Source: an uncultured archaeon
GTDB lineage: Archaea > Aenigmatarchaeota > Aenigmatarchaeia > GW2011-AR5
NCBI GenBank assembly: GCA_964599215.1
Contig: CAZRDV010000001.1
Coordinates: 55,615-119,614 of the forward strand
Length of the DNA stretch: 64,000 bases
Reading direction: 5' to 3'
Each line of letters starts with the position of its first letter. Position 1 is the first letter of the stretch. Below, in pieces: positions 1 to 61,839 of this stretch. A model generated the notes under the pieces. That model searched no databases. It saw nothing but the letters and a program-made list of their open reading frames with translations, and had not been told where the DNA came from. The translations under genes and the position numbers were made by a program.

Positions 1-39
1 GCCTACCTTTCCCAGGATGTTGCTCTTGGCACCAATTTT

Positions 40-864: not shown

Positions 865-868
865 CTCT

Positions 869-1315: not shown

Positions 1316-1317
1316 TA

Positions 1318-2343
1318 TTGATGAAGGGTTTTGTAAGAATATTAGAGGCTGTGATAGCTTCGTTTGTTATACTGATATCTCTGAGCTATTTTATTACAGC
1401 GCCATCAGGTTATGACTATTGGGACGAAACGTTGTTAAGAATCCAGGCCCAGGATGCATTAGCAAGCCTTTACAAGAGTGGTTCATTGGAAAATTATATA
1501 ATAAATAATGATATAGATGGGATTAACAACACGCTGACTGCGATGCTGCCGGGAACTGCTGATTTTTCTGTAGAGATAAAAGGCATGCCAGGCACGATAA
1601 TTTATATAGGCTGTAACTGCAGCGATGCTGAGCTAGCTAATTTAGAAAATATGCTAGGTAAAACCGGGGGTGAAATACGCCTTACATATAATGGACGGCA
1701 AATCGAGATACGGGTGAGTAAGTCTTCTATAGATAATATTGACCCAAGAACCAATATATATTTTATGTTTGATTACACAGACCTGAATCCTTACAAGGAT
1801 AAAATGAACGGTTTTCTCCAGGCCGGCGGAACACTATTCATGCTAGCTGATTTAGATGAAAGTAAGGTTGAAGACGGTATCCTAGATGAGACGTTTGGAC
1901 TGGAATGGACAGACATAACTGCCTCAACAAGTGGAAAATTCTATAACTACGGGGATGTAGAAAAGAGGTCCCACTGGATTAGAAACTATTTCTTAGGCCT
2001 GTCTGGAAATGAGAGCGAAATAGAATTTGACAATGGCAGAGGCGTAGTCAATGATGATAGGACAGTGATAATCGATGATACATATCAGGTATCCAAGGTA
2101 AAGATCAATGAACTTAATTGTGGCAGGACGGTCTGGTTTGCTGGTTATGACGGATCAGGTGATATGAACGATCTGCTGAAGGCCCTTATTCTATGGTCAG
2201 CTGATAACGGGTATAGGATGGATCCTGGCTATAAAACCGCAATGATAGATAAACTGAAGAACAGTGATATTCCTTACACAGAGGCAAGTTATTTATTACC
2301 GAACTACGAAGTGAGATTAAGGGTGTGGGGAATTTTCTACTAA
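1318..2343 (+). CDS. Secreted pilin-like protein with class III signal peptide
   Basis: N-terminus MMKG|FVRILEAVIASFVILISL, followed by a soluble domain. Starts 3 nt after the upstream pilin gene. Confidence 0.5.
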   Translation: MMKGFVRILEAVIASFVILISLSYFITAPSGYDYWDETLLRIQAQDALASLYKSGSLENYIINNDIDGINNTLTAMLPGTADFSVEIKGMPGTIIYIGCNCSDAELANLENMLGKTGGEIRLTYNGRQIEIRVSKSSIDNIDPRTNIYFMFDYTDLNPYKDKMNGFLQAGGTLFMLADLDESKVEDGILDETFGLEWTDITASTSGKFYNYGDVEKRSHWIRNYFLGLSGNESEIEFDNGRGVVNDDRTVIIDDTYQVSKVKINELNCGRTVWFAGYDGSGDMNDLLKALILWSADNGYRMDPGYKTAMIDKLKNSDIPYTEASYLLPNYEVRLRVWGIFY

Positions 2344-9133: not shown

Positions 9134-9231
9134 GCCTCGGTAGCTCAGTAGGTAGAGCAGTTGGCTGTTAAGTGCCTCAAGGCTCATCCACAGTAACCAA
9201 AAGGTCACAGGTTCGAGTCCTGTCCGAGGCG
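9134..9231 (+). tRNA. tRNA, probably tRNA-Asn(GTT), with an approx. 25-nt intron after position 37
   Basis: Acceptor stem GCCTCGG/CCGAGGC, D arm GCTC..GAGC, T arm ACAGG-TTCGAGT-CCTGT, anticodon loop CTGTTAA, discriminator G. Total 98 nt implies an intron. One mismatch at 27:43. Confidence 0.6.
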
Positions 9232-10003: not shown

Positions 10004-10582
10004 GTGATTATTATGGTGAAAAAGAAAAAAATCGAAAAAGAAATGATAAAAGAGGTTATAGATTCTGTCCTAGCAGAGGACAAGGTCCTTGTATTCGAAA
10101 ATATAGATCAGGTTTATGAGCCTGGATACTATGGTAAGGAATTAGAAAACAGGCTGGAATTGGCTCTTGTAGAGGCCTGTCTTTTATTGAAAAAGGGTAG
10201 GATAAGGATTATGAAAGGCACTCATCCGATGAAGTTCAAGGAATTATATGAGCATGCGTGTTCTTTTGATAAGCGTTTTCCTGAGAGATTCAGGGTCTAT
10301 GAAGACCTAAGGGAAAGAGGTCTTTTAGTTAGAACAGGCTACAAGTTTGGCTGTGATTTTAGGGTTTATGAGCGTGGTGTGCAGCTGAAGAAGGGCCCGA
10401 AGGCTGCCAAGGAGCATACTAAATGGGTTGTGTTTTGCGTGCCTGAGGATTACACCTGCTCTTTCCAGGAGTTATCCAGGGCAGTGAGGCTGGCACATAA
10501 CATAAGGGCAAGGATGCTGTGGGCAATAGTTGACAATGAAGGGGATTGCACATATCTACAGATAACAAGGCACAAGCCATAG
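10004..10582 (+). CDS. endA: tRNA-splicing endonuclease
   Basis: C-terminal catalytic block YKFGCDFRVYERG...H...K is typical of archaeal EndA. Consistent with intron-containing tRNAs in the window. Confidence 0.8.
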   Translation: MIIMVKKKKIEKEMIKEVIDSVLAEDKVLVFENIDQVYEPGYYGKELENRLELALVEACLLLKKGRIRIMKGTHPMKFKELYEHACSFDKRFPERFRVYEDLRERGLLVRTGYKFGCDFRVYERGVQLKKGPKAAKEHTKWVVFCVPEDYTCSFQELSRAVRLAHNIRARMLWAIVDNEGDCTYLQITRHKP

Positions 10583-10590
10583 ATGATAGT

Positions 10591-11724
10591 ATGCTTGTAA
10601 AGGACCTGATGAATAAGAATGTTGTCTACTGTGAACCTGATGAATCAGTAAGCCAGGCGTTGGGCCTGATGAAAAAATATAAGGTACATCAGTTGCCTAT
10701 TATAAAAGACGGTGAACTGACAGGAATCTTGATATTAAACAAGATCATCACCAGGGAGATAGACCCTCTAAAAACCAAGATATCAACTTTAATGATACCT
10801 TCTCCTAGATTAAGTCCTGATGCTTCTTCAGAGGATGCAATAAAATTACTCCTGGGTTCAAACCTCAGGGCAGTTCCTGTTTTCGATTCCAAACTCAGGG
10901 GAATGATATCTGAACAGGACCTGATGAAGGCTGTTAAGGCTGAAGACAAAATAGCTGTTGAGAAGTGTTGCTATATCGAAGAGGATAGTAATATAGGAAA
11001 GGTCAAGAGCCTTATGATACACAAGAACGTATCAAGGGTTCCTGTTGTAAAGAACGGTAAGTTCATAGGGGTCATTGGCACGCTTGACCTGATAAAGGTC
11101 TTGGAAGGTAAAAGAAGATTTGAGGCACGGCACGGCAGATTAAAAGACAGTGGATACAAAGAGGGCCACAGGGCTCATATTGATAAAATTTCTGTCAGTG
11201 CTGTTATGAGAGAACCGGTTATCCTAAAAGCTGATTATAGTAGCAGCGAGGTTGTTGAATTATTAAAAGAGAATGAAGAGGTTCTGATAGAAAACGGTGC
11301 TCTTGGCCTGATAACAGCAAAGGATATACTAAGGTCAACTGTAAAGCCAAGCAGTTTTTCTTATGTCCAGATAACAGGCATAACAGATGAAGGTGCAATT
11401 GTAACTGATAAAATACATCAGGCAGCTTCAGAATTGGTACAAAGGCTTTCCAGATCAGTAGAGCTGCAGCCAATGAAGATACATATAAAGAAACACAAGA
11501 AGCTAGGGCCAAAAACCAAATATTCTTTGCATATAGAATTGCCTACCTCTCTTGGTCTGTTTGTTTCAACAAAAACACACGGGGTTGGGAAGACCTATGC
11601 TGATCTGCCTACACTTGTTCAGAAAGCTATGAATAATCTTGAGAAGGAGATAAGAAAGAAAATAGAAAAGGGTAGGAGAACAGAAAAGAGAAGGGTTTCT
11701 TCAAAAAGATTAGGAAAAGAGTAG
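10591..11724 (+). CDS. CBS-domain protein (four CBS repeats plus a basic C-terminal tail)
   Basis: Repeated CBS-like segments (VHQLPIIKDGELTGIL; RAVPVFDSKLRGMISEQDL; SRVPVVKNGKFIGVIG). Start moved to an internal Met to avoid overlap with endA. Confidence 0.55.
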   Translation: MLVKDLMNKNVVYCEPDESVSQALGLMKKYKVHQLPIIKDGELTGILILNKIITREIDPLKTKISTLMIPSPRLSPDASSEDAIKLLLGSNLRAVPVFDSKLRGMISEQDLMKAVKAEDKIAVEKCCYIEEDSNIGKVKSLMIHKNVSRVPVVKNGKFIGVIGTLDLIKVLEGKRRFEARHGRLKDSGYKEGHRAHIDKISVSAVMREPVILKADYSSSEVVELLKENEEVLIENGALGLITAKDILRSTVKPSSFSYVQITGITDEGAIVTDKIHQAASELVQRLSRSVELQPMKIHIKKHKKLGPKTKYSLHIELPTSLGLFVSTKTHGVGKTYADLPTLVQKAMNNLEKEIRKKIEKGRRTEKRRVSSKRLGKE

Positions 11725-17313: not shown

Positions 17314-18069
17314 CTATCTCCTAAAGAGTGAGAACAATCTATACTGCCATGGTACTCTGAATTCCTCTCCGGCTATTCTGTGGGCAAGCCTGTTTATTTC
17401 TATACTGGCAGGGCTGTTTGGTTTGTGATGAAGTACAGGTATCTTTCTCGATATGCTCTGCTGGATACTGATATCTTCGGGTATTTCTGCCAGCAGCTCG
17501 GTATCCAGCATGCTGACTATTTCTCTTGTTCTCAGCTCATGGCCCTTTCCTGTTACCCTGTTTATAATAAGGCCTGAAACCTTTGTACCGACCTGTTCTG
17601 CTAGTTTTGCAGCTTTCAGGGCATCGGTCACGGCTGGCAGTTCAGGCGTCGTAACTAAGATCATTTCATCAGCTGCTTCTATAGAGGCCAAAGCCTCTCT
17701 ACCAAGGCCAGCAGCTGCATCGATTATGACATACTCTGCGTCACCAACCAGGTCCAGCAGGGCATTAGGCAGGTCTCTTGCATCCACGCCCTTAAGGTCC
17801 TTTAATGCAATGCCTGCCGGAACAATCCTAAGGCCGCTTTCGTGTTCATATATTGCATCCTCCAGGCGTGCGTTGCCCCTTAATACGTCATGCAGGTTAG
17901 TTGGATATAGTGGAAGCCCGAGATGCAAACCAAGATTCGGTGTGGTAAGATTACTATCGAGAATTACAACATTCTTCCCAAGCTCCGCCAGCGCAATGCC
18001 AAGGTTAGCAGTCAGCATGGTCTTTCCTGCGCCGCCTTTGCCTGATGCACAGGTAATTATCTTGGTCAT
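17314..18069 (-). CDS. MinD/ParA-family P-loop ATPase
   Basis: Deviant Walker A CASGKGGAGKT at the N-terminus, 251 aa. Confidence 0.8.
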   Translation of the reverse strand: MTKIITCASGKGGAGKTMLTANLGIALAELGKNVVILDSNLTTPNLGLHLGLPLYPTNLHDVLRGNARLEDAIYEHESGLRIVPAGIALKDLKGVDARDLPNALLDLVGDAEYVIIDAAAGLGREALASIEAADEMILVTTPELPAVTDALKAAKLAEQVGTKVSGLIINRVTGKGHELRTREIVSMLDTELLAEIPEDISIQQSISRKIPVLHHKPNSPASIEINRLAHRIAGEEFRVPWQYRLFSLFRR

Positions 18070-18119: not shown

Positions 18120-18235
18120 TGGGCGCGACGGGATTCGAACCCGCGACCCCTAGCTTTCTTCCTATCATCCTGGAATCAAATCTTCTATCCCTAAGATAGA
18201 AGGCTAGTGCTCTATCCAAGCTGAGCTACGCGCCC
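18120..18235 (-). tRNA. tRNA-Arg(TCT) with an approx. 41-nt intron after position 37
   Basis: On the reverse complement: acceptor GGGCGCG/CGCGCCC, D arm GCTC..GAGC, anticodon stem CTAGC/GCTAG with loop CTTCTA|intron|A, T arm GCGGG-TTCGAAT-CCCGT, discriminator A. 116 nt total. Confidence 0.65.
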
Positions 18236-32406: not shown

Positions 32407-32492
32407 TAGCCCTGGTAGGATTCGAACCTACGTCACGAGGTCCAGAGCCTCGTATCCTTGACCATTTTCCAGATAATCTAGACCACAGGGCT
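32407..32492 (-). tRNA. Candidate tRNA-Gln(CTG) with about 13 extra nt in the D-loop (possible non-canonical intron)
   Basis: Reverse complement: acceptor AGCCCTG/CAGGGCT, anticodon stem-loop CGAGG-CTCTGGA-CCTCG, T arm GTAGG-TTCGAAT-CCTAC, discriminator A. The D-arm region is 31 nt rather than about 17-18. Confidence 0.5.
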
Positions 32493-33317: not shown

Positions 33318-33641
33318 TCAGCCTCTAAGGTCGTCTAGTATATCTCTGCTTATTTTCTTTTCTTCGAGCTTTTCGTCCAGCAAATCAATCCTTTCCCTTA
33401 CGTCTTCAATGCTCCTCTTCAGTTCGAATATATCATCGTTCTTGATTGAAGAGATTTCCCTATTTATTGAATCTATTACGTCCTTCTGTTTTGTGAATTT
33501 CTCGCTTATTATACTTGCAAATTCCCTTAGAAACTCACTTATTTCCAGCTCTCTTTTTTCGGCAGTTGTCAATTCTTCGTACATTATAATGATAAGCTGA
33601 AAAAGTTTTAATAGGCGTAGCATTTTTGGCCATGAAAACAT
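33318..33641 (-). CDS. Hypothetical coiled-coil protein
   Basis: 107-aa helical, charged protein. Confidence 0.4.
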   Translation of the reverse strand: MFSWPKMLRLLKLFQLIIIMYEELTTAEKRELEISEFLREFASIISEKFTKQKDVIDSINREISSIKNDDIFELKRSIEDVRERIDLLDEKLEEKKISRDILDDLRG

Positions 33642-33684
33642 TTAAATAGGGGGAAAAACAACTTATACAAAGGAGGGAACTGAA

Positions 33685-34065
33685 ATGAAAATAAAAGGAC
33701 AAGCAGCCATGGAGTACCTCATGACATACGGCTGGGCTATAATTATTATAATTGTGGCTGTAGCTGCTCTTTATGCCATGGGTGTATTCAATCTAGGAGG
33801 GAGTACAGTACCTTGTTCACCGTGTTTCAGCTACTTTGCATTCATAGACTACGCTAACGATACACTTAAAATCAGAAACGGGGCTTACGATATTCAGTCC
33901 ATGACTATCGATACAGGAACACTGAGTACATCAACACCAAGCCCAGGTAACGATATAACCGTTACAGGGTTAGCAGGAACAGGTGACTTGACCCTTACAA
34001 TAACATACAACCTTACATCTTCTGGTTTGGTCCACACGGATTCAGCAACCATACACAGGGGATAA
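33685..34065 (+). CDS. Type IV pilin with class III signal peptide (Q+1/E+5 type)
   Basis: MKIKG|QAAMEYLMTYGWAIIIIIVAVAALYA has basic residues, Gly at -1, Gln at +1 and Glu at +5. Solitary gene, convergent with the pilus operon. Confidence 0.65.
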   Translation: MKIKGQAAMEYLMTYGWAIIIIIVAVAALYAMGVFNLGGSTVPCSPCFSYFAFIDYANDTLKIRNGAYDIQSMTIDTGTLSTSTPSPGNDITVTGLAGTGDLTLTITYNLTSSGLVHTDSATIHRG

Positions 34066-34126: not shown

Positions 34127-35110
34127 TTAGAACATAGTACCGAACATACTTATAAGAACAGTTTTTGAAAGGAAGTATATTCCTAAGCCTAGGAAAAGCA
34201 ATATGGGAATGAATTTCAGCCCTGATCTCTCTGAACCCTCCTGCACCAGGCCTATGAGCATACCACCGAAAATAGATGTGATTAGAATAGCCAAGATAGA
34301 GTAGAGATTCAGGAATTCTGAATCAATTTCAGTGCTACTGAAGCTGATAAACGGGGCGTTGCCAGGAATGTTTTCTGTATCCATTCCCCCTGTTATCTCC
34401 CCCATGCTTGTGACAAGAAACCCTGATACCGAGTATAAGAGCGGTGCGCCTATTCCAGCCGCGAAGAAGATAAATATAACGTACATCATAACTATGGCGC
34501 TAACCTCTTTTCTCATGGTTTTTGTCTGCCTTATATCCTCTGCAAGGCTATCCAACAGGCTTGGAAGATTTCCGCCTTTTAGGAGTCCTTCTGCTAGCAG
34601 GTCCATGCTTCTTCTCAGGGCATTTGAATTGAATTTATCAACCAGCCTTTTGAGTGCGGTTTCTGCTGATTCTCCTGATATGGTCTCTTTTGCTGCCTGT
34701 TTGATTTCTGTCTCCAGTTGACCGAATTCAGGTCTTGCTGAGAGCAGCAAGGCCTTATCAATGGTGAAACCTGAACGAATATTGGATGAAAGGAGCCTTA
34801 AGAAATCAGGAATTATGTCTTCTACAAACTTTGTTCTGCTGTCAGTCTTTATGATCAAAACAGAGTGAATCAGAATCCCAAATAAAATAAAAATAACTAA
34901 AAAAACCGGCAGAACAAGGCTGCTGGCTATTATGCCTAAAAAATACAGAACAAGACTTATTAAACCAAATATAATGCCGTAAAAGACGAAAATACCGACA
35001 AATTTCTCAGCTGGCATGGATACCTTTGAATATATCAAATACCTCTTGATCCATCCCTTGTAGGAGGATGGTGCAAACCTGTACAATCTGTTATAAATTC
35101 TATACCTCAA
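34127..35110 (-). CDS. TadC/FlaJ-like T2SSF-domain membrane protein (pilus platform subunit)
   Basis: N-terminal TM pair, cytoplasmic T2SSF-like helical domain, C-terminal TM bundle. Last gene of the operon. Confidence 0.7.
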   Translation of the reverse strand: MRYRIYNRLYRFAPSSYKGWIKRYLIYSKVSMPAEKFVGIFVFYGIIFGLISLVLYFLGIIASSLVLPVFLVIFILFGILIHSVLIIKTDSRTKFVEDIIPDFLRLLSSNIRSGFTIDKALLLSARPEFGQLETEIKQAAKETISGESAETALKRLVDKFNSNALRRSMDLLAEGLLKGGNLPSLLDSLAEDIRQTKTMRKEVSAIVMMYVIFIFFAAGIGAPLLYSVSGFLVTSMGEITGGMDTENIPGNAPFISFSSTEIDSEFLNLYSILAILITSIFGGMLIGLVQEGSERSGLKFIPILLFLGLGIYFLSKTVLISMFGTMF

Positions 35111-35981
35111 TGGAAGGCCTCCTGTTCTTTATTATTCCGATGAAAGAAAACTGGAATACAATCAAAATAAGCAAGAGTAAAAAGAATATTGTTCTTGTTA
35201 TAGGGAACCCTGAAAATGAGGATATTATAATAAGAAAGGTAGTACCGAGCGAGGGTATGACCACGGCAAGCATCATGTACATCATTGCCATTGGGTTAAG
35301 CTGTGATCCGTATTTACGTATTGCTATTCTCTGTTCACTTGAAACATTATTAACAATGCTCTCAAGAGTGCTTCCTAGATCGGTACCTGACCTCATGGAA
35401 TTGGTTATCTGCCATATCGCCCTTCTGAAATGAAGAGACGGATTCTTTAATGCAAGTTCTTCCAGGGCAGTGTCTTCAGGCATACCAGTCGAGATTTTTT
35501 TGGTGCATATGGCAATTTCATCGGAGAGGGCACCATAGTTCTGTTTAGCGACGGAAACAAGCGAATCAAACAAAGAAACTCCTGATTTCACCTGTATGGT
35601 CAGGTGCCTTAAGCCATACAGAATATTTTTTTCCAGTTCTTTAACCTTTCTTGTAATCATAAGTTTCGGGTAAAGAAGTACATAAATAAAAGCTAGCAGG
35701 GAGACGCTGATAGCAGTTAGAAAAGATATGAATAAGAAATTAAGTTCAAGTATCTTCCCAAGGGTAAGGAATGATATTAATAAAAGGAAAAACCAGAAAA
35801 TTGATGTGATGAAGGCAACAGAGGCATACTCTCTTGCATCAATATCTATTTCAGCCTGTTTTAAGTACATATTAAGGGATGAGTGTTTTACTATCTTGTC
35901 CCCTATTCTTGTGAATCTTCTAGCTAACCTAAATATCTTTTCTAGAGGAAATGGAACAAAGGGAATTTTCTTCAATTTCAT
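35100..35981 (-). CDS. TadB/FlaJ-like T2SSF-domain membrane protein (second platform subunit)
   Basis: Same single-domain architecture as 34127..35110, overlapping it by 11 nt. Split platform as in bacterial TadB/TadC. Confidence 0.7.
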   Translation of the reverse strand: MKLKKIPFVPFPLEKIFRLARRFTRIGDKIVKHSSLNMYLKQAEIDIDAREYASVAFITSIFWFFLLLISFLTLGKILELNFLFISFLTAISVSLLAFIYVLLYPKLMITRKVKELEKNILYGLRHLTIQVKSGVSLFDSLVSVAKQNYGALSDEIAICTKKISTGMPEDTALEELALKNPSLHFRRAIWQITNSMRSGTDLGSTLESIVNNVSSEQRIAIRKYGSQLNPMAMMYMMLAVVIPSLGTTFLIIISSFSGFPITRTIFFLLLLILIVFQFSFIGIIKNRRPSIEV

Positions 35982-37507
35982 ATGCTCTCCAAATAGTATT
36001 TTGGGATAATTTCATCCGCATTCTTTTTGTTTTTTATGAGTTTCAGAACATTTTCAGGATCCTGATAATATTCGGAGATAACAAAACCGACGCCGTTTAC
36101 AGTATTAACCTTGTTCCTAACAAGCCAGTCGAGTATGACCTGCTTTGCTTTCAGGTCTTTCTGGATTTCAATTTCTGTCATCCCGCCATAAGACTTCAGC
36201 TTTTCCATCAGCTTGATGCTCTCTTTATATTTTATTATTTCGTCTTTCAATGGGTCCCATTTGAAAAGAACCCTTAACTCTTCTTTAGCCTTTTCCTCAC
36301 CTGTCGCTATGGTTGGGAGCATTTCCACTACCTCGTAGATTCTTCTTATGCCTTTTCTCCTGTCTCTGAACATGACTATCAGTAAATCTAATGATTCCAG
36401 GAGCGGCTCTGGCACGGATATCGGTGCGTTTACAAGCCTTCTGAATGTTTGTTCCGCAGTATCTGCATGCAGTGTAGAATAGACGCTATGGCCGGTGTGC
36501 ATTGCTTCAAAAAGAACTTCTGCTTCTTCTGCTCTTCTTATTTCGCCTACAACTATCCTGTCAGGCCTCATTCTAAGGCTGTTTACCAAAAGGTCTAGCA
36601 TACCTATCCCGCCCTTTCCTTCTGGATTTGGTTCTCTTGTTGTCAGTGGTACCCAGTGCAAGAAATCAGGCAGATTTACTTCTCGCGTGTCTTCTATGCT
36701 TATTATACGCTGATTTGGCGGTATGAAAGGCATTAGTGTGTTGAGAAAGGAGGTTTTGCCAGTTGCAGTGCCGCCAGAAACTATCATGTTCATCTCAAAT
36801 TCAATAGCCAGCCAGAGCAGTGCTGTTATTTGTGATGATGTTGTTTTGTGTTCAATTAGATCGGTAATGGTCCACGGCTTCCTTCTAAACATTCTTATTG
36901 ATATAGTATTACCTACAGTGGAGATTGGAAAAAGTGTTGCATTAACCCTGTCACCGCTGATTAGGTGTGCATCAAGCAGAGGGTGCATGGTTGTTATCTG
37001 TCTTCCAACCTTTCTTCCTATGGATGATGCATAGTTTAAGATGTTGGCTTCGCTGTCAATGGTAATGTTTGTCTTAAGCCAGCCGTATTGTTTATGATAA
37101 ACCCATACAGGGCTTTTTGATGAATTGACAACTATTTCCTCAAGCCTACCATCTGCCAATAACATTTCAATGTTTCCTAATCCAAGCATCTCGTGAACCA
37201 AAGAGGTTGCTAAAAAGTTCTCTTCTAGCTCAGTTATTCCGAAGAGCTTTTCTCTTATAATTTTAACCCCACGTGAGTATAACTTCGCTTTCATTTCTTC
37301 TAGGGCCTGTGGATCCAATAATTCATGTGTATTGATTTGTAATTTATTGATGATTTCTTCCTTTGCTTCATCAAGCAGCGCAAGCGTCCCTTCCTCCAGT
37401 TTTGGCATTTTTACAAAGTATATGGGAACAAAATCATGCTTGTCTTTTTTTATCTCTACTTCAACTTTGATTCTGTCAGCCGAAAACGAATATTTGTCTA
37501 TCATCAT
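35978..37507 (-). CDS. Type II/IV secretion system ATPase (FlaI/TadA/VirB11 family)
   Basis: Walker A GGTATGKTSFLNTL, Asp box IEDTREV, Walker B/His box RMRPDRIVVGEIR..HTGH. 509 aa with a long N-terminal domain. Confidence 0.9.
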   Translation of the reverse strand: MMIDKYSFSADRIKVEVEIKKDKHDFVPIYFVKMPKLEEGTLALLDEAKEEIINKLQINTHELLDPQALEEMKAKLYSRGVKIIREKLFGITELEENFLATSLVHEMLGLGNIEMLLADGRLEEIVVNSSKSPVWVYHKQYGWLKTNITIDSEANILNYASSIGRKVGRQITTMHPLLDAHLISGDRVNATLFPISTVGNTISIRMFRRKPWTITDLIEHKTTSSQITALLWLAIEFEMNMIVSGGTATGKTSFLNTLMPFIPPNQRIISIEDTREVNLPDFLHWVPLTTREPNPEGKGGIGMLDLLVNSLRMRPDRIVVGEIRRAEEAEVLFEAMHTGHSVYSTLHADTAEQTFRRLVNAPISVPEPLLESLDLLIVMFRDRRKGIRRIYEVVEMLPTIATGEEKAKEELRVLFKWDPLKDEIIKYKESIKLMEKLKSYGGMTEIEIQKDLKAKQVILDWLVRNKVNTVNGVGFVISEYYQDPENVLKLIKNKKNADEIIPKYYLESI

Positions 37508-38295
37508 ACCCTCCTCAAAACAGGCTTGCCTATGGCAGGATAGTCTATTTTTATAAGCCCGTGCTCTTCCAGTATCCTTGCCAGTTCTTCTATATGAGCT
37601 TCTTTCATTCCTGTTTCCTGTGCGATCTTTCCTATGCTGACCTTTGTTGTCACCATGTTCAATATCTTGTCTATATCAGTTTCTATTACGTTCCCCATTT
37701 CTTTTTGCATCACATCGAAAAACAGTCTCATTATACCTTTCATCACGTCTGTTCTGGTAGCTATGCCTGTTAAAGACCCCTTATTATTCACTACAGCCAG
37801 TCTTTCTGCATTGTTTTTATTTATCGTCTTTACCGCCTGGTTCAGGGTGTCGTCTTCCCTTACGGTAAATGGTTTGCGCATAACATCTCGGATAATGGTG
37901 CACCCCATGGCTTTTATGTCTTTGACGGTAATATCGTTTTTGCCCAATATTTTCAGTATGTCTGACTTGTTGATAATACCTACCAATTTGTTTCTGGATA
38001 GAACAGGGGCGCCATCAATCTTATCCCTGAAGAACATGTCTGCAGCGTTTCCTAGGTTGTCCTTTTCATCTAGCGTCTTCGGAGCTGGTACCATGATGTC
38101 CCTTATTTTTACAGTACCTATAATTATCTTATTCGTTACTGCCTTTACCCGCCTCTTCCTCGAAGCTGCAATATTGTCCAGTGTTTGCTTTGCTACTTTC
38201 TTTTGTGATTTTATTTTCATCTTTTTTTTACCAGCCTTTGGTGTCCTGTTTTTCATTTTGTTAACCTCCTTTTTCAATGATAATTTCTTAGCCAT
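37504..38295 (-). CDS. CBS-pair protein with C-terminal winged-helix domain, embedded in the pilus operon
   Basis: Lys-rich N-terminus, two CBS motifs (IMVPAPKTL..; VIRDVMRKPFTV..), C-terminal helix-turn-helix-like IGKIAQETGMKEAHIEELARILEEHGLIKI. ATGA overlap with the ATPase gene. Confidence 0.65.
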   Translation of the reverse strand: MAKKLSLKKEVNKMKNRTPKAGKKKMKIKSQKKVAKQTLDNIAASRKRRVKAVTNKIIIGTVKIRDIMVPAPKTLDEKDNLGNAADMFFRDKIDGAPVLSRNKLVGIINKSDILKILGKNDITVKDIKAMGCTIIRDVMRKPFTVREDDTLNQAVKTINKNNAERLAVVNNKGSLTGIATRTDVMKGIMRLFFDVMQKEMGNVIETDIDKILNMVTTKVSIGKIAQETGMKEAHIEELARILEEHGLIKIDYPAIGKPVLRRV

Positions 38296-38348
38296 AAATC
38301 ACCACCTTTTCTTATTCTATTATAATTTTCCATATATTAATTCTTCTT

Positions 38349-39611
38349 TTAGATTAATAACTCTGATACACCATATATCGCATGGTGCGTGCTTCCTAGC
38401 GAGGTTATGTTATCTATTCTGAATGTAGGGTCTAGGCCCTTTACAGCATAGCCGTTTATCACATCGTTAGAAAAGTAAAGGTAATCTATATTTGTCTGTT
38501 GGTTTTTTATATCAAGGTCCAGTAACAGTAAGTATACCTTGTTAACAAAGCTTTCTAGTCCTATCGTATAATTTGTCTGGTTTGCGTACTTTTCCTGCAC
38601 TTCTAAGGAGCCTTCAAGTCGGTCAAGAAAACTCGCACCGACAGTGCTGGTGTAATAAACTGAATTCTCTGTATGATTCTTAAGTGTGTCTATAAACCAG
38701 ACCCTGCCTTTATCCCCGTCAACAAGGAGGTTTGTACTGTTTTCTATAAGAACCGTTGCGCCAGATGCATTGTAGACGTATGTATTTGTTGCCCCTGGGC
38801 TGACAGTTTCCTCGGATACAATTCCGAGGAATTGGTTAACTGTAGGGAGAGGGATAAGGGAGGCGTCGTCTGTAACCAGAATTTTTTCATCTTTATCTGG
38901 AACATTTAAAATCTCGGCCATGGATGAAGCTGGTATTACAACACCCTGTCCGTACACCCAGTTGCTGTTACCCATGCTATCTATGAGAAGTTCGGTATAG
39001 TTTTCATACCCAGCCTTTGCTATAAGATTGGTAGCCCTTCCTATAGTATTCAAAGGGTAAGTAGGATCTTCAAACCCCTCTATAGAAGTTAGATGATTGA
39101 GTGTTTCATCTCTGTTCAGGCTTGCAGTACCTCCTTTATCAGAGATGTTTATATTCATTACTCCGGTTGTAACCAGATTCCAGCTGTCATAGGGTTTTAC
39201 TTCAAAATTAGTAATGATTATGTTAATGTTATAGCCCTTGGTATCTCCTACATTTTTTATTTGAGCTATCCAGTCTGGAAGTGTATTGTTCTCCATCAGG
39301 CTTTGTGGTGTAGAATGCAGAGTACCATTCCAAGCTAGTTCTGCAAGGCTTTCCTGAGAATTGTTCAGGGAAACGCCTTCTGATACGATGGAACTTATGC
39401 ATACAGAGATTGCCCTTTTTGTTATGATGTCTGATGCCTTGTTGACATCCCTTACTATGCCTTCGTACATCTTGTACATGTCGTTTAACCTAGCTTCAAT
39501 AGAAATCTGTTCCCTTTTATGATGAACAAGGCCCTTCTGTATTTCTATCATACTAAGAAGTGTTATTGTTAACGAAATCAATATTAAACTGAACATAATG
39601 CCCTTTTTCAT
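38349..39611 (-). CDS. Secreted pilin-like glycoprotein with class III-type signal
   Basis: Internal start MKKG|IMFSLILISLTITLL chosen (the ORF opens at 39656). Many N-x-S/T sequons. 4-nt overlap with the vWA gene. Confidence 0.5.
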   Translation of the reverse strand: MKKGIMFSLILISLTITLLSMIEIQKGLVHHKREQISIEARLNDMYKMYEGIVRDVNKASDIITKRAISVCISSIVSEGVSLNNSQESLAELAWNGTLHSTPQSLMENNTLPDWIAQIKNVGDTKGYNINIIITNFEVKPYDSWNLVTTGVMNINISDKGGTASLNRDETLNHLTSIEGFEDPTYPLNTIGRATNLIAKAGYENYTELLIDSMGNSNWVYGQGVVIPASSMAEILNVPDKDEKILVTDDASLIPLPTVNQFLGIVSEETVSPGATNTYVYNASGATVLIENSTNLLVDGDKGRVWFIDTLKNHTENSVYYTSTVGASFLDRLEGSLEVQEKYANQTNYTIGLESFVNKVYLLLLDLDIKNQQTNIDYLYFSNDVINGYAVKGLDPTFRIDNITSLGSTHHAIYGVSELLI

Positions 39612-42229
39612 TTTTCCCACATCAAAACTTTTATCAGGCTTGGCCCCCATAGCCATCTCAAGCCTTTTAGATTCTTGGTTTCAGTAGCTATATTCCCTTC
39701 TCCTGCCTCCACATAGTCGCTTATTTCATTCTCAAGCCTTTGTATTGCATCAGCTGTTGCTGATTCATAACTGTCTAACATATCACCGTATCCTACTGAA
39801 CCACTTACCCTTATAGTATAGATGATTCTGTTGTCTGGAGATCCGCCCGTAGCATTGCTCGGCTCTACGCCGGTTCCAATCCTTACAGAGTTGTTTCCTG
39901 AGCTTATGTAATCTAAGGGTATCTGAACTATGTATGGATCTCCAAGGCTCTGGTAATCAACAATATAATCACCGAGCCAGTATATACCTGTCCAGTCGAT
40001 TAAAGGATTATTCACATACACGCGATCTGTCCAGAATTCTGAAGAATAGGATGTAATCTTAGCATCAGCTATTCTCACTTTCTCTGATACATTGAACCAC
40101 CCTTCTTTATATGGAATATCTATGGTGTCACCTGTGAAGTTTCTAAATCTTGCAGTTTCACGTGTCAGGGAGATCTCTCCGTATTCATACGGTAGTATGT
40201 TGGGTGTATAATCAAACCCTATATAAGAATCCGGATAAAGGATGTTTCCTGCTGAGATGTTACCGTCTATAGTTATTACCTGTGCCTTGTATCGTATCAC
40301 TATATTCTCAGCTATACGGCGGTATATCTCTCTCAGTTCTTCTGAATCAGCACTGGCGTAGTAAAGTCCTTCTCCACAACTTGCAATTGACCTCAGGGTC
40401 CAGTTTGCGTTTGGACAGCTTGCTACAGGACCAAATCCTATAGAGTGCACCACTGCGTCCAGATCGTTATGAACCCTGCAGGAAGAGTAATTTGCATTTT
40501 GCATTGCACCATTGCAGCTATTACCAGTGCAATCTGATGCACTGCCGAAACAGTCTGTGAATTGTGATGCTGTACTGGTTCCTGTTGAATTACAGCTTAT
40601 ACAGAAAAATAAGAACCAATCAGCGCAGCCGCAGCATGCAGAAGGAATTCCGTCAGACATAACAATTATATATTTTTCCCTGGAGGAGTTGCTGTAGGTA
40701 TTCAGGATATTGTATGCCCTGTTGATTGCACAACAGATGCAGGTGCCTCCTGAAGGCTCTTCTGGATAACCATCAATATGAGTTATTAATTCTTCTCTTG
40801 TTGAACCAAGGTCAGGCGTGTATACATAAGCATCGGAATTAAAGCCGACCAGTCCCATTCTATTGCCTGTGACATTCATGATGATGTTGATGAATTCTTT
40901 GTCAAGGCATCTGGCCAGGCTTATTCTGCTTGTGTTTGAGCTGTTTATTTCTGGATCACCACAATCTGAAATTACATTACCGTCATCGCTGCTGTTCATC
41001 TTCCAGTTCATACTTCCTGAAAGGTCTGTTATAAGAATAACATCTGCTTGCCCTTGTTTTATAAAGAGTGGTGATCCAGGTTCCAATCCAAACCTTATTG
41101 GTATTGTTTCTTCACTAAGATGTTCGTAATCCAATCCTGTTAAGGCAAGACTAGAATTTATTTCTGTGTTGTTCAGAAAAACGGTCTGTTCTCCTGAGGC
41201 ATTGCTCTTATAGACAGTTGCATTACCGATTGTAAATAAGAGGGTTGCATTTTCTATGTTGTTTAGATAGTGCAGGGATGCATTCATAGAACTTATGTTT
41301 CCTTGGACATAGAAAGACGAATACAGATTAATAAGTCCGTGTATACCTGGGAAATAGTACCTGCTGTTTGGTTTATCAGTAATCATCTCAGAGGTGTTGT
41401 AGCTGACCCTGAGGTATCCGCCGCCTATATAACTCCCGTTTCCTGTAAAGTTGATGTTGATTATATTGTCGCCAGAATTAAAATTATCTAGGTAGCTATA
41501 ATTGATGTTCCATGTGTCTGCTGTCATGTTTCCGTCACCAGAAGATTTAGTATAGAAGCCTGAATCCTGGTTGTTTATGTACAAGCTGAAGTTGTTGCCT
41601 GCATTGAATTCAATATAAGCCTCATTCACAACCTCGATTATTGGCAGAGTTATGATTCTAGTTATGTTTCCTTCTCCGACAAAACCTCCGAAGTATGCAT
41701 AGGCTGATTCTGTCTTACTCTTTATGCTTGTTAGAAATGCCCTTGCAAGGTAACCCTGGGTTGGTTTTCCAACCATGTAACCTGTTTCTATCCTGGCTGA
41801 AACTGCTGTATTTCTCTCTGACAGGCTGCATGAAGAATATATAGATTCATTTTCAAGATAGAGGCCAATACAGAAATCAAGAGTAATCCTTTCCATGACC
41901 TCTTTAGATATATTAAGCGCTATTGACCTGTTGCCGGCGTACCAGAAACTGGCAATCAGGTCTAATATTGTCTTGTTCAGGTCTGCTTCTTTTATGACAT
42001 TCTTCGATACTAAGTTTGCTATGGTCGGCTTATCAATGAAACTAGATGCCTTTAGGTGGGAGATTGCTTCCATGGTGTCATCCGCAATATAGCTTAGCTT
42101 TTCATATTGTCTTTCCTGAAATGTACTTTCTGAACTCCAATAGCTGCCGAACATTAGAATAGATAACAGCAAGATAGACGTCCCTAAGAGAATGTCTAAT
42201 GTAAACACGAATCCTTTTTTCATTTCCAC
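39608..42229 (-). CDS. Large secreted vWA-domain glycoprotein, putative pilus tip adhesin
   Basis: N-terminus MEMKKG|FVFTLDILLG. vWA/MIDAS motifs DLSGSM ... VMSDG at about aa 395-640 with a Cys-rich insert. More than 25 N-glycosylation sequons. 873 aa. Confidence 0.8.
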   Translation of the reverse strand: MEMKKGFVFTLDILLGTSILLLSILMFGSYWSSESTFQERQYEKLSYIADDTMEAISHLKASSFIDKPTIANLVSKNVIKEADLNKTILDLIASFWYAGNRSIALNISKEVMERITLDFCIGLYLENESIYSSCSLSERNTAVSARIETGYMVGKPTQGYLARAFLTSIKSKTESAYAYFGGFVGEGNITRIITLPIIEVVNEAYIEFNAGNNFSLYINNQDSGFYTKSSGDGNMTADTWNINYSYLDNFNSGDNIININFTGNGSYIGGGYLRVSYNTSEMITDKPNSRYYFPGIHGLINLYSSFYVQGNISSMNASLHYLNNIENATLLFTIGNATVYKSNASGEQTVFLNNTEINSSLALTGLDYEHLSEETIPIRFGLEPGSPLFIKQGQADVILITDLSGSMNWKMNSSDDGNVISDCGDPEINSSNTSRISLARCLDKEFINIIMNVTGNRMGLVGFNSDAYVYTPDLGSTREELITHIDGYPEEPSGGTCICCAINRAYNILNTYSNSSREKYIIVMSDGIPSACCGCADWFLFFCISCNSTGTSTASQFTDCFGSASDCTGNSCNGAMQNANYSSCRVHNDLDAVVHSIGFGPVASCPNANWTLRSIASCGEGLYYASADSEELREIYRRIAENIVIRYKAQVITIDGNISAGNILYPDSYIGFDYTPNILPYEYGEISLTRETARFRNFTGDTIDIPYKEGWFNVSEKVRIADAKITSYSSEFWTDRVYVNNPLIDWTGIYWLGDYIVDYQSLGDPYIVQIPLDYISSGNNSVRIGTGVEPSNATGGSPDNRIIYTIRVSGSVGYGDMLDSYESATADAIQRLENEISDYVEAGEGNIATETKNLKGLRWLWGPSLIKVLMWEK

Positions 42230-42693
42230 ACCACAGAATCCAGAAAAACAAAGGTGCTGTTTAATATGCCTGCTCTCTTCACCTTGATAACATCCCTGCT
42301 GTTTGACGGAGTTAAACCGAAATTAAATAATGTTGTGTTTGTCTCGTCGTAAACTAAAAAATAATATTCCAGGTCACCTAAACCAAGCAATTGTTTGGAA
42401 GCGTTGTAACCAATTTCATTTAGGCTGTTCATCTTAGAGTAGTTGAATGCATGGTTATCCTGAAAGCCGAGGCTGATTATGTTGGTCTTATTCCAGTTAT
42501 TTGGTACGCCCTGCCTAAACCAGACATCAGAAGTAAGATATGCTTTTTCTATTAAGTCATCTAAGTACCGTGTTTCGTCTATCTGTGATGTAACGCCTAC
42601 CCATTGTATAAGCAGGATACTAACAACTAAAAAAAATACAAACGATGCTATAATGAAATCGTATGAAAGCTGGGCCTTAAGTAACATAGACAA
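42220..42693 (-). CDS. Pilin-like protein with class III signal
   Basis: MSMLLKA|QLSYDFIIASFVFFLVVSIL has Gln at +1. Sequon-rich soluble part. Confidence 0.5.
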   Translation of the reverse strand: MSMLLKAQLSYDFIIASFVFFLVVSILLIQWVGVTSQIDETRYLDDLIEKAYLTSDVWFRQGVPNNWNKTNIISLGFQDNHAFNYSKMNSLNEIGYNASKQLLGLGDLEYYFLVYDETNTTLFNFGLTPSNSRDVIKVKRAGILNSTFVFLDSVVWK

Positions 42694-43063
42694 CCCCGTT
42701 TATATTTTCAATAAGATTCCAGCCTGTTTTAATTTCGCCTGTAATATTCTTTGTTGAGATTATACAGGCTTTTGATCCATGATCCCAGTCTATAAACACA
42801 GCATAATCACTAACTACTATATCAAAATTGGATACGCCGAAAAGCGTTTCCTCTATATAAAAAGACCGTCTGTATGAATCGCCGAATCTTACTGCTGAAT
42901 TGATTTCAAATGCAGTTCTTTCACAGAGTTTTTCGATTTCTTCGTCTGCTTTTATATTAAAACTCCTTTCCCTGAGTGACATCTCGCCAAAGATAAAGAG
43001 TGTGAACATTACTATCAGAACTGACAGGAGTACCATAAACTCTATAGTCATTTGACCCTTCAT
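42677..43063 (-). CDS. Type IV pilin (Q+1/E+5)
   Basis: MKG|QMTIEFMVLLSVLIVMF has the canonical prepilin N-terminus. 128 aa. Confidence 0.7.
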   Translation of the reverse strand: MKGQMTIEFMVLLSVLIVMFTLFIFGEMSLRERSFNIKADEEIEKLCERTAFEINSAVRFGDSYRRSFYIEETLFGVSNFDIVVSDYAVFIDWDHGSKACIISTKNITGEIKTGWNLIENINGVVYVT

Positions 43064-43464
43064 TCAACCACAGTTATGTTTACAGAATACTTATCAGCAA
43101 TCAGCGCAATGAAGTAGCATCCGTTGTTTGTCGGCACAGAACCATTTAACATAGGTATCGTATCACTGTAGATGTCCACGATGCCGGCTGATGTCTTTAG
43201 CTTGAATAATACCATGCTGTCTAATAATACCTCTTCCACACCCTCTGGGATACAGACATTTATTGTCAGCCTTGCTGGAGGGCCCTGGGAGTAAACCCAG
43301 TTGGCGCTTTCAGCGATTTTGCTTGCAGCAGCCTTTGCAGATGATATCTTCACATCCTCTTTGTAGCCAAGCAGGTTCTGGTTAGAATAGAGGATAAGTG
43401 GTACGAGTATTGCCAGCGCAAGCCCGATGATTACTAGATATTCAACAGATGCCTGAGCTTTCAT
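43060..43464 (-). CDS. Type IV pilin (Q+1/E+5), first gene of the operon
   Basis: MKA|QASVEYLVIIGLALAILV. 134 aa. 4-nt overlap with the next pilin gene. Confidence 0.7.
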   Translation of the reverse strand: MKAQASVEYLVIIGLALAILVPLILYSNQNLLGYKEDVKISSAKAAASKIAESANWVYSQGPPARLTINVCIPEGVEEVLLDSMVLFKLKTSAGIVDIYSDTIPMLNGSVPTNNGCYFIALIADKYSVNITVVE

Positions 43465-43913
43465 AAATATAGTTATTCTCGCCCTAATAAGAGTTTTATT
43501 TTAAAGTTTTCTGTGCAAATACTAAACTGACGTAGTATTCTGAGTGAGAAGTTAAAACTAACAGCATTATTGATGTCTACTGATCTGCTATATAATATAG
43601 GCCCCCGGTTTAACTCTCACATTTGGGTGTGAGTTCACCTATCTTCTGTAATATATATTTGATTAAGCTTATTATCAATAATATATTATACTATTAATAA
43701 TTAGTATGAAAGATATTTGATGTAATATATATTGTAGTAGATACTACCATGATTATCTCTCACAAAAGAAATATAGGCTTGAAGATATATTTGTCAAATG
43801 ATTCTTAATTACATATCAATCTCAATAGATATTTCTTAGAATATAATATATCTGAAAATTTGGTTATATCTCTCACATAAGAAAATTATTTTGTTAAAAG
43901 TAAGCAAAATAGG
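43465..43913 (-). promoter_or_regulatory. AT-rich upstream region of the pilus operon containing three TCTCTCACA-type motif copies
   Basis: Motifs at about 43611 (actctcacatttgggtgtgag), 43755 (tatctctcacaaaagaaa) and 43868 (tatctctcacataagaaa). Multiple TATA-like tracts. Confidence 0.4.
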
Positions 43914-44450
43914 CTACTCTTCTTGCTTATTTTCATTCTTTTCTACCTTATTTTCTTCGTTTATTGCTTCATTTTGCTCTTCTTTTTCCGGCTTCATGGT
44001 GCGCGCCATCTCTAACATAAGAAGGTCGTCAAAATCCTTTGCAATTCTTCGTGTTTTTCTCATAAATGCCTTTGTTGCTGATTCTACCCTGTCTAAGAGG
44101 CGGTTTACAGTAGGTGCTGTAAGCATATATCCCTTAATAAAATCATTTCCTGATGGTATTTTAACGAATTCCATCAGCCCCAGGGTTCTCCATTTCCTTA
44201 TTTCCTCGTATGTCTGGCTCTGTGATATTGATAATATCTGGGAGATCTGCTCTATTGACAGCGGTATGTTCTCTTTTCTGTATTTTAGCAGCTCCAGGAG
44301 CAGCTTTGAATGGTCTGCCCTGCTCTCTTTTCTTTTAAGACCTAGTCTCCGGACCAGGGCAACAGAAAGGTCGTTTGTTGTTATATTTAGTTTGTTATCA
44401 GGCGGCTCAACTCGTATAAAAACCATATCAGAAAGCTTCTTTTTCGGCAT
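43914..44450 (-). CDS. HTH transcriptional regulator, putative
   Basis: Central helix-turn-helix-like segment (IEQISQILSISQSQTYEEIRKWRTLGLMEF) and acidic Glu/Lys-rich C-terminus. Immediately upstream of the pilus operon on the same strand. Confidence 0.5.
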   Translation of the reverse strand: MPKKKLSDMVFIRVEPPDNKLNITTNDLSVALVRRLGLKRKESRADHSKLLLELLKYRKENIPLSIEQISQILSISQSQTYEEIRKWRTLGLMEFVKIPSGNDFIKGYMLTAPTVNRLLDRVESATKAFMRKTRRIAKDFDDLLMLEMARTMKPEKEEQNEAINEENKVEKNENKQEE

Positions 44451-60850: not shown

Positions 60851-61339
60851 TTAAATGGTTTTCAGCTGGCCTATTTTCTTTTCAAGCTCTTTTCCAGTAG
60901 CCTTCAGGTTAACGAATTCCTTTTTCAGCAAAGGAAGGATATCAGAGAGATAAAAATCATTGAAGGTTCTTGTTACAGGCCCGGTTTTCTTCATTGCTGT
61001 CTGTAAGATGCCCTTGAACCTTATATCCAAGAAACCGTTTGTGGTGCTTTCTCCGTTCAGGTCAAAGATTATCACTGATCTGGTAAATTTGTCTATCTTC
61101 TTCTTTAATTCAAATGAAAGCTCTATCCTCTTTCTTGGTCCGTCTGTTTCATAGATGTTCTTCTTTTCAACAGGCTCGCCAAAATTACTTGCTATTTCCT
61201 TTATCTTAAGCGACAGTAAAAACGGGTCAGGCGTAGATAACCGGATGTTCTCGGAGAATATCTCTTCTGTTATACGCATATTAATTTTTTGTCTGGTTAG
61301 AATAAAAAGTTTGTTAATTAGTCCCTGCACTCTTCGCAC
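60851..61339 (-). CDS. Hypothetical protein
   Basis: 162-aa ORF with no recognisable motif. Confidence 0.4.
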   Translation of the reverse strand: MRRVQGLINKLFILTRQKINMRITEEIFSENIRLSTPDPFLLSLKIKEIASNFGEPVEKKNIYETDGPRKRIELSFELKKKIDKFTRSVIIFDLNGESTTNGFLDIRFKGILQTAMKKTGPVTRTFNDFYLSDILPLLKKEFVNLKATGKELEKKIGQLKTI

Positions 61340-61839
61340 TTGTAGACACCGTCTACCTCCTTGACATCGTCACTGTAGTTTCCGCATACCTCGCATCCTG
61401 AAAAGCCGGTTTCTTCACGCATTCTCAGTGCTCCCATCTTCATCCTCTCCAGTAGTATGTTGAACAGGGCAGGCTCGACCCTCAATATGTCATTATTGGT
61501 TATTATTCCAACAAGCCGGTCTTTATCAAAAACAGGCAGTTTCTCTATTCTCTTTGATACCATAAGCCGTGCTGCATGCTCTATTGTTTTTTTAGGCGAT
61601 ATCTTTATCAGGCTCTTGCTCATTACATCCTTTGCTTTTTTGCCCTTGCCTGATGCTATATGCTTGTATACGATATCACGCGTACTTAGTATGCCGACGA
61701 CTCTGCCTCCGGACATAACAAGAACGGAGCCTATTTTGTACTTTTTCATCATCATTGCTGCTTTTTTTATAGGGTCTGACACACCTATGCTCCTGATTTT
61801 CTTTGTCATCACGTCTTTAACAAGGGCATTGAACTTCAT
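61318..61839 (-). CDS. CBS-pair protein with C-terminal zinc ribbon
   Basis: Two CBS segments and a C-terminal CEVCGN...CEEC. 173 aa. Confidence 0.7.
   Translation of the reverse strand: MKFNALVKDVMTKKIRSIGVSDPIKKAAMMMKKYKIGSVLVMSGGRVVGILSTRDIVYKHIASGKGKKAKDVMSKSLIKISPKKTIEHAARLMVSKRIEKLPVFDKDRLVGIITNNDILRVEPALFNILLERMKMGALRMREETGFSGCEVCGNYSDDVKEVDGVYKCEECRD

Follow-up and report, generated by a model that had tools for sequence, protein, structure and literature searches.

A type IV pilus operon with a large pilin-like vWA protein in a DPANN archaeon

Introduction

Which filament does an archaeal operon encode when it places a large protein with a vWA domain among pilin-like genes, and what would that protein do? 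The question is raised by a gene cluster on the minus strand of contig CAZRDV010000001.1 (assembly GCA_964599215.1) from an uncultured archaeon. We analyzed the 64,000-nucleotide stretch from position 55,615 to 119,614 of this contig; the whole stretch is called the window below and all coordinates refer to it. An initial annotation had described a nine-gene Tad-like type IV pilus operon, with the vWA protein compared to PilY1-type tip adhesins. The core of that identification holds, in that the genes form a type IV pilus operon and one of their products is a large vWA protein outside the cell. The organism is a DPANN archaeon and probably Aenigmatarchaeota-like. We consider it likely that its filament is a type IV pilus of the Epd-like kind ('system 1'-type, Tad-related), and that the vWA protein and its neighbor, a 420-aa protein here called p420, belong to a priming complex that ends at the pilus tip.

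Results and Discussion

Layout of the operon and its host

The ORF (open reading frame) list of the window holds nine co-directional, mostly overlapping ORFs at 34127-43464 of the minus strand. Along the operon their products are pil1, pil2, pil3, the vWA protein, p420, a protein with CBS domains and a winged helix-turn-helix (CBS-wHTH), a T2SSE ATPase, and the N-half and the C-half of a platform. With the most plausible starts the genes overlap by 4, 17, 4 and 4 nt from pil1 to p420, are then interrupted by a gap of 53 nt, and overlap again by 4 nt (CBS-wHTH and ATPase), 4 nt and 11 nt. The same nine genes appear in independent public calls on an identical contig (JGI metagenome 3300031698, Ga0315537_1000207; Logan assembly). 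All nine of the coupled genes first proposed were thereby found, and the hidden Markov model matches to T2SSE, T2SSF and vWA all lie above the Pfam cut-offs. The extent of the locus needed one correction, as the nine-gene operon stands and a convergent pilin gene beyond its distal end (33685-34065) had been overlooked. On the other side of the operon, a 178-aa gene (43914-44450) was rejected as a member of the cluster, with homologues only in identical contigs.

The nearest relatives of the locus proteins are encoded in Aenigmatarchaeota metagenome-assembled genomes, in agreement with the DPANN-like organism that had been proposed. Intron-bearing tRNA genes and a tRNA-splicing endonuclease elsewhere in the window point to an archaeal host.

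A vWA protein with a pilin-type N-terminus

The vWA protein is encoded at 39608..42223 on the minus strand. Its domain had been called correctly and its length had not, since the likely start is the ATG at 42223, giving 871 aa, rather than the GTG at 42229 that would give 873 aa. Two Pfam families match above their cut-offs, VWA_2 (PF13519) with 35.8 bits and VWA (PF00092) with 26.4 bits, and no other Pfam family was found on the protein. The metal ion-dependent adhesion site (MIDAS) is intact: across 73 sequences D524 never varies, and conservation reaches at least 90% for D400, S402, S404 and T494. An AlphaFold2 model of the protein, made with 73 homologues, has a mean pLDDT (predicted local distance difference test) of 87. 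The protein begins with a class-III-like N-terminus, MKKG/FVFTLD (the slash marks the putative cleavage site), a motif kept in 57 orthologues, and its N-terminal helix spans residues 9-34. In the model this leads into a helical region up to about residue 114, beta-sandwich domains (117-350), the vWA domain at about 393-643 with a Cys-rich, low-confidence insert at about 530-560, and C-terminal beta domains (660-870).

Sequons (N-x-S/T) number 31, compared with 12.2 +/- 2.9 in shuffled sequences (z about 6), so that the earlier description of the protein as sequon-rich is borne out, and it contains 18 Cys. Because of the class-III-like N-terminal helix, the sequons and the Cys residues we regard the vWA protein as extracellular. 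Longer members of the family, of 1100-1500 aa, bear PF21471, CBM_4_9, PF17829, Laminin_G_3 or DUF2341 in addition, and to judge from these domain assignments such add-on modules are in line with a binding role.

The top match of the model among PDB structures, found with Foldseek, is the vWA pilin PilB of Streptococcus sanguinis (E 2.4e-12). Later matches include the pilus-tip adhesins Mfa5 and PitA, and many vWA structures are matched at probability 1.00. Modular pilins with a vWA domain are established in bacteria, with PilB (PMC8179133) and with CpaL/TadG of the Tad pili (PMC11870444) as examples. Like PilB, the archaeal protein appears to combine a class III signal, a pilin part and a vWA module with a MIDAS. 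PilB works with another modular pilin, PilC, and p420 may play that part for the vWA protein. The differences are considerable: identity to PilB is 13-15%, with a TM-score on the target of only about 0.47, the archaeal protein has twice the length and carries additional domains (beta-sandwich and C-terminal) as well as an insert rich in Cys, and the signal motif, the organism and the machinery lineage are all different.

PilY1, with which the initial annotation had compared the protein, has a vWA-like N-terminal domain. The two systems share a general plan, as in PilY1 with FimU-PilVWX and in GspH-I-J-K, where small minor pilins together with one or two large proteins prime assembly and cap the filament. 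PilY1 itself is not a pilin and is defined by its C-terminal beta-propeller, whereas the archaeal protein has its own pilin-type N-terminus and no match to a propeller family. With PilB as the top structural match we abandoned the PilY1 comparison and rejected membership in that family.

p420, a second large pilin-like protein

The gene of p420 (38349..39611, minus strand) lies in an ORF of 435 aa that most likely starts with MKKG at 39611, which agrees with the 420 aa originally given. Its N-terminus reads MKKG/IMFSL, and its very confident model (pLDDT 95) consists of a 77-residue N-terminal helix with a beta-sheet, a pilin-like lollipop, followed by a C-terminal 'swivelling' beta/beta/alpha domain. 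The pilin module matches the pseudopilins GspK and GspI. Sequons number 11, compared with 6.0 +/- 2.0 in shuffles, an excess weaker than that of the vWA protein. Forms of the p420 family with 590-700 aa carry PepSY; together with the add-on domains of the vWA family this suggests, at the level of domain architecture, module swapping on a conserved pilin carrier in both families. Judged by their models, the vWA protein and p420 look like modular pilins.

Small prepilins and a candidate major pilin

Three small prepilin-like proteins are encoded at the start of the operon, all on the minus strand and recognized by motif. The first, pil1 (43060..43464, 134 aa), begins with MKA/QASVEYL, with Q at +1 and E at +5, and has a single N-terminal hydrophobic helix. 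It is followed by pil2 (42677..43063, 128 aa; MKG/QMTIEF, Q+1 and E+5), which overlaps pil1 by 4 nt, and by pil3 (42220..42693, 157 aa, or 155 aa from the ATG at 42687; KA/QLSYDF, Q+1 and an acidic residue at +5/+6). The motifs of the two Q+1/E+5 prepilins and of the third class-III-signal protein in the earlier description are present in the sequence and are kept in orthologues; the class-III-like N-termini of the vWA protein and p420 had escaped that inventory. We consider pil1, pil2 and pil3 probable minor pilins.

The overlooked gene, on the plus strand and convergent with the operon (33685..34065), encodes a prepilin of 126 aa with the N-terminus MKIKG/QAAMEYLMTYGWAI, supported by motif and homologues. 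Among the homologues the N-terminal sequence Q-x-A-M-E-Y-L-M-T-Y-G-W-A-I is highly conserved, and 39 of 84 related loci have such a homologue no more than 10 kb from the vWA gene. The gene has its own TATA-like box (33640-33648, plus strand) and a strong GGAGGG ribosome-binding site (33672-33677, plus strand). Because of the conserved N-terminus, the TATA-like box and the ribosome-binding site, the 126-aa protein is probably the major shaft pilin.

Six proteins were picked out by a motif scan for [KR][GA] ahead of a hydrophobic helix, namely pil1-3, the vWA protein, p420 and the 126-aa pilin, each of which has exactly one N-terminal hydrophobic segment. In the orthologues from more than 80 loci the six fall into two motif classes. 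The class of pil1, pil2, pil3 and the 126-aa pilin has Q at +1, mostly with an acidic residue at +5/+6, which is the signature of EppA-type (Epd) pilins; Q+1 is found in 34/35 orthologues of pil1, 22/24 of pil2, 23/27 of pil3 and 38/39 of the 126-aa pilin. The vWA protein and p420 form the other class, with a hydrophobic residue at +1 and no E+5.

An assortment of many 'minor' pilins against one small candidate shaft pilin could also be read as a system without a long pilus, that is, a short pseudopilus or bindosome-like assembly that displays or secretes the vWA protein and p420, in the manner of the type II secretion system (T2SS) or the Sulfolobus Bas. The match of the p420 module to GspK/GspI goes in this direction, as do weak NCBIfam matches to BasB (E 0.039) and BasE (130 bits, far below the cut-off). 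However, the Bas matches remain far below threshold, a small pilin that is transcribed on its own, and whose N-terminus is highly conserved and ribosome-binding site strong, suits a shaft subunit, and Epd-like relatives make real pili (PMC4858521, PMC3875500). We therefore regard an assembly without a long pilus as quite improbable.

Motor ATPase and split platform

The ATPase gene (35978..37507, minus strand; its start in public gene calls is one codon later) encodes a 509-aa type IV filament assembly ATPase of the FlaI / TadA / archaeal GspE family. It matches PF00437 (T2SSE) with 125.8 bits, the cut-off being 24.9, and its Walker A, Asp box, Walker B and His box motifs are intact. Of its solved relatives the closest is Archaeoglobus fulgidus GspE (2OAP, 239 bits), ahead of FlaI (189) and CpaF (170). 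Two platform genes follow on the same strand, each with one T2SSF domain (PF00482, cut-off 25.2 bits): the N-half of 293 aa (35100..35981, 63.1 bits) and the C-half of 327 aa (34127..35110, 60.3 bits). The N-half gene covers positions 4-249 and the C-half gene 253-553 of the 555-position ArlJ/FlaJ model, which identifies them as one FlaJ-type platform split in two. The two proteins are paralogous (27% identity, E 3e-11), and the order ATPase, N-half, C-half is kept in 48 of 49 related loci.

Two single-domain platform genes had been taken for a bacterial TadB/TadC trait. This does not stand, as split platform genes are described for archaeal Epd-like ('clade 1' or 'system 1') and many euryarchaeal clade 2 loci (PMC4858521, PMC6668835, bioRxiv 10.64898/2026.04.22.720090), and bacterial TadB/TadC are thought to derive from such an archaeal system via gene fission and transfer (PMC4858521, PMC6668835). 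System 1 is moreover stated to occur in DPANN (bioRxiv 10.64898/2026.04.22.720090). The machinery is ordinary for archaea and the split platform is no surprise.

The top NCBIfam match of the ATPase is the FlaI model, and ArnB appears at rank 12 of the Foldseek matches of the vWA protein. Both could be taken to mean that the cluster is an archaellum, or that the vWA protein is a cytoplasmic regulator of the ArnB type, and thaumarchaeal 4A loci do have vWA regulators linked to them (PMC4858521). The archaeal-pilus-linked vWA proteins of Makarova et al. are ArnB-like regulators that come with MoxR/GvpN ATPases and are a distinct thing (PMC4858521); the locus has neither an FHA nor a MoxR partner, and the class-III-like helix, the 31 sequons and the 18 Cys place the vWA protein outside the cell. 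An archaellum was rejected, since the FlaI match of 282 bits is far from the equivalog cut-off of 550 and the locus has no match to archaellin, FlaF, FlaG or FlaH. We give a regulator or an archaellum hardly any credence.

Conservation of the minor-pilin block

A scan with one genome per GTDB species found a relative of the vWA protein in at least 284 species. Among the best 80 of these, which the breakdown by taxon covers, are Aenigmat-, Woese-, Pace-, Nano-, Parv-, Micr-, Nanohalo- and Altiarchaeota, and the large vWA family is conserved over the full length of the protein. The full block was also present in a few bins labelled, as deposited, Methanosarcinales, Euryarchaeota (SM23-78) or Coatesbacteria; either the labels are wrong or the bins contaminated, or the module extends beyond DPANN and Altiarchaeota. 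When the vWA protein was compared by tblastn with 72,556 plasmids no match was obtained, and a search from a Nanohaloarchaeota orthologue returned no protein named for a cultivated DPANN species.

Synteny was counted by tblastn of the window proteins against 86 loci. A homologue of p420 is near the vWA gene in 68 of the 69 loci with enough downstream flank, and pil1 is upstream of it in 55 of the 73 with enough flank. Of the 30 loci that offered at least 9 kb on each side, 28 have the ATPase gene and the two platform genes no farther than 10 kb from the vWA gene. Relative to the vWA gene these motor genes are co-directional and downstream in 29 loci and divergent and upstream in 19. The synteny comparison across DPANN called for by the initial annotation thus shows that the block pil1-pil2-pil3-vWA-p420 recurs across DPANN and Altiarchaeota, with the motor genes linked to it.

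A proposed mechanism and its weak points

GspH-K, FimU-PilVWX-PilY1, S. sanguinis PilA-B-C and Caulobacter CpaJ-K-L are known or predicted priming-tip complexes, and GspK and CpaL lack a residue equivalent to the +5 glutamate. By comparison with these systems, a prepilin peptidase encoded elsewhere would cleave the prepilins after [KR][GA], and an ATPase hexamer on the TadC/TadB-like platform pair would extract the pilins from the membrane and polymerize them. The 126-aa Q+1/E+5 pilin would form the shaft. pil1-3, the vWA protein and p420 would constitute a priming complex that nucleates assembly and ends at the pilus tip, with the two large pilin-like proteins first in the filament; this position is proposed because both lack the Q+1/E+5 signature, as expected for first subunits. 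The N-glycosylated vWA module might then present its MIDAS and bind a surface or cell ligand via the metal. Through the CBS-wHTH protein, expression or the activity of the ATPase is probably tied to a signal from an adenosyl ligand. A role as tip adhesin, and attachment to a host, we infer by analogy.

Several observations weigh against an Epd-like pilus with the two large proteins at its tip. Heuristic scans for a prepilin peptidase (a multi-transmembrane GxGD protein) in the window or adjoining the 86 related loci found none, and retrieved only the platform proteins and one unrelated 8-transmembrane protein. The ATPase misses the equivalog cut-offs of both NCBIfam models, that of FlaI given above and that of TadA (203 bits, cut-off 373). 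The class III signal family PF04021 stays below its 23.7-bit cut-off in pil1 (18.9) and pil2 (13.4), and the N-terminal signals of the vWA protein and p420 were judged by motif alone. In the model of the vWA protein the N-terminal helix is followed by a helical region with no obvious small pilin beta-sheet. The assignment to 'system 1' rather than clade 2 or subsystem 4A would follow from only two sequence traits, the split platform and the Q+1 pilins. Finally, identity across phyla is 31-52% for the vWA protein, compared with 32-55% and 31-49% for the platform proteins; such conservation fits a core role better than that of a host-specific adhesin or a fast-evolving host-range factor.

Conservation at the level of the platform proteins bears on a further explanation, in which the vWA protein and p420 are not tip adhesins. 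They would remain membrane-bound, with or without cleavage, and serve as a base, an anchor or priming factors for assembly, a part first suggested for TadG, so that they would influence how many pili form and how long these are, and not binding. In Caulobacter, deletion of CpaL mainly lowers the number of pili (PMC11870444), an anchor hypothesis for TadG is cited by Makarova et al. (PMC4858521), and the lack of the Q+1/E+5 signature in both large proteins is in line with it as well. A base or anchor is harder to reconcile with a near-invariant MIDAS, a heavy excess of sequons and many extracellular Cys, with relatives that carry adhesin-type add-on modules, and with top structural matches that are tip-located pilus adhesins. 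We find this explanation unlikely, though one to be taken seriously; since priming complexes in the studied systems reach the tip, the base or priming role and the tip role are not exclusive.

Relation to known pilus systems

A close parallel to the proposed priming-tip pilus is the Epd pilus of Methanococcus maripaludis, which has an ATPase and two single-T2SSF genes, Q+1 pilins (with the PF04021-type signal), and several minor pilins together with large adhesin-like proteins in one transcription unit. The DPANN locus is different in that it has no EppA peptidase, FlaH-like or MinD-like gene and its gene order is ATPase, N-half, C-half. Epd-like systems are also described as having large adhesin-like proteins and at least five minor pilins (PMC4858521, PMC6668835, bioRxiv 10.64898/2026.04.22.720090), but the large proteins of the DPANN locus are a vWA pilin and a pilin with a swivelling domain and not of the DUF2341 type of clade 1. 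Epd/Flp pilins are about 70 aa long, whereas the candidate major pilin described here has 126 aa and a globular C-terminal part.

With bacterial Tad pili the locus shares a split TadB/TadC platform and a single CpaF/TadA-like ATPase (PMC6668835). The TadE/TadF/TadG (CpaJ/CpaK/CpaL) proteins are likewise small minor pilins with a large MIDAS-vWA pilin-like protein, predicted to be at the tip (PMC11870444), and in both TadG-type and archaeal proteins the vWA domain is interrupted or flanked by beta-rich domains. On the other hand, no match to the secretin RcpA, TadZ, TadD, a Flp-type pilin or the N-termini of TadE/F/G was found among the ten locus proteins, the host is an archaeon without an outer membrane, and the likeness rests on the vWA fold. 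The bolder proposal that the block pil1-pil2-pil3-vWA-p420 is the counterpart by descent of TadE/TadF/TadG (CpaJ/K/L), and a general host-contact device in DPANN, we consider doubtful. If it were true, a vWA-bearing tip or priming complex would already have been present in the archaeal Epd-like system ancestral to Tad pili, and claims that DPANN lack type IV pili would be contradicted; one preprint states that DPANN genomes lack components of type IV pili (bioRxiv 10.1101/2020.05.14.094862).

In cluster 2 DPANN, Hamm et al. 2024 described a pair of conserved loci that resemble those of type IV pili (PMC11291902). Their loci come from the same lineages (Nanohalo-, Woese-, Pace-, Nano- and Aenigmarchaeota) and have the same core genes, a CpaF-like ATPase, TadC and PilA-type pilins, and the window holds parts of two such loci. 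In contrast, coiled-coil proteins are highlighted in that study and no vWA protein is mentioned in its main text or supplement text, the latter being free of the terms vWA, TadC and PilA; the likeness is one of lineages and core genes.

That a vWA pilin had not been described for archaeal pili agrees with our literature search, which found no paper on an archaeal vWA pilin or on the five-gene block within a coverage that leaves out most subscription journals.

The CBS-wHTH protein and the region upstream of pil1

Between p420 and the ATPase gene, the operon encodes a cytoplasmic protein of 263 aa (37504..38295, minus strand) with a Lys-rich N-terminus, a pair of CBS domains (88.3 bits) and a C-terminal wHTH. 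The CBS-wHTH architecture had been named before; the wHTH part is weak from the single sequence and is supported by a profile of 18 orthologous C-termini, which matched the HTH of LrpA (E 1e-4) and Lrp/AsnC, IclR and ArsR HTH domains, while PF25212 (HVO_A0114) matches 11 of the 18 copies. This C-terminal wHTH of about 60 aa (37507-37704, minus strand) is found directly upstream of the ATPase gene across DPANN phyla, with the consensus ...ETxIDKL...IEEWAxILEEHGLIxIxYP and fused to varied N-terminal regions; CBS domains are attached to it only in the Aenigmatarchaeota-like subset. From its domains and its position the protein is probably a regulator of the locus or a partner of the ATPase.

Further CBS proteins were noted in the window, one of 392 aa with four CBS domains (10546-11724, plus strand) and one at 61318-61839 (minus strand) with an N-terminus that is CBS-like by eye. 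As sensors of the CBS type seem to be frequent in this genome, the pair attached to the pilus-linked wHTH may be a habit of the lineage.

Upstream of pil1 lies a non-coding region of 449 nt (43465..43913, minus strand), which was read from sequence and could contain promoter and operator. A TATA-like box, CTTTAAAATA, is found at 43497-43506 (minus strand), 33-42 nt before the ATG of pil1. Farther upstream are three exact direct copies of TGTGAGAGWTA on the minus strand (43611-43621, 43754-43764 and 43867-43877), spaced 113-143 nt apart, with no further exact copies within the 64-kb window. These repeats may serve the CBS-wHTH protein as operator. We rejected the idea that such an operator is conserved, since the repeats are absent upstream of the orthologous loci in other species and present only in the organism's own contigs.

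Other features of the window

At the left end of the window (1-2343, plus strand, and 2392-4980) another type IV pilus-like locus comes to its end. Its T2SSF platform gene (to 864, running off the left edge; 55 bits), closest to the C-half platform gene, is followed by class-III-signal proteins at 869-1315 (MKG/IINIEF) and 1318-2343 (MMKG/FVRILE) and then by an 862-aa UPF0182 membrane protein. This matches the two conserved DPANN pilus loci (PMC11291902).

A stand-alone MinD/ParA-family ATPase of 251 aa is encoded at 17314-18069 (minus strand). For the pili of archaeal clade 1 and clade 2, members of the MinD/ParA family (FleN/MinD, TadZ-like) have been proposed as partners.

Two tRNA genes, at 9134-9231 (plus strand, 98 nt) and 18120-18235 (minus strand, 116 nt), were seen by Rfam and not by ARAGORN; given their length they probably contain introns, and a tRNA-intron endonuclease gene (10004-10582, plus strand) is near the tRNA genes. 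ARAGORN also predicted an 86-nt tRNA-Ile at 32407-32492 (minus strand) with the unusual anticodon AAT, which is below the Rfam gathering score and doubtful.

Conclusions

Our analysis adds a DPANN-wide, tightly linked minor-pilin block with two proteins that look like modular pilins, p420 and a vWA protein whose MIDAS is intact; it also adds a probable major pilin and, as a partner of the ATPase, a conserved wHTH. The idea of the modular pilin, known from bacteria, would thereby be extended to archaea, and the origin of the Tad tip complex (TadG/CpaL) is raised as an evolutionary question. Surface and host recognition by DPANN archaea is little understood and few candidate molecules are at hand, and for this the locus offers a sequence-searchable candidate, a pilin-like protein with a MIDAS-vWA domain.

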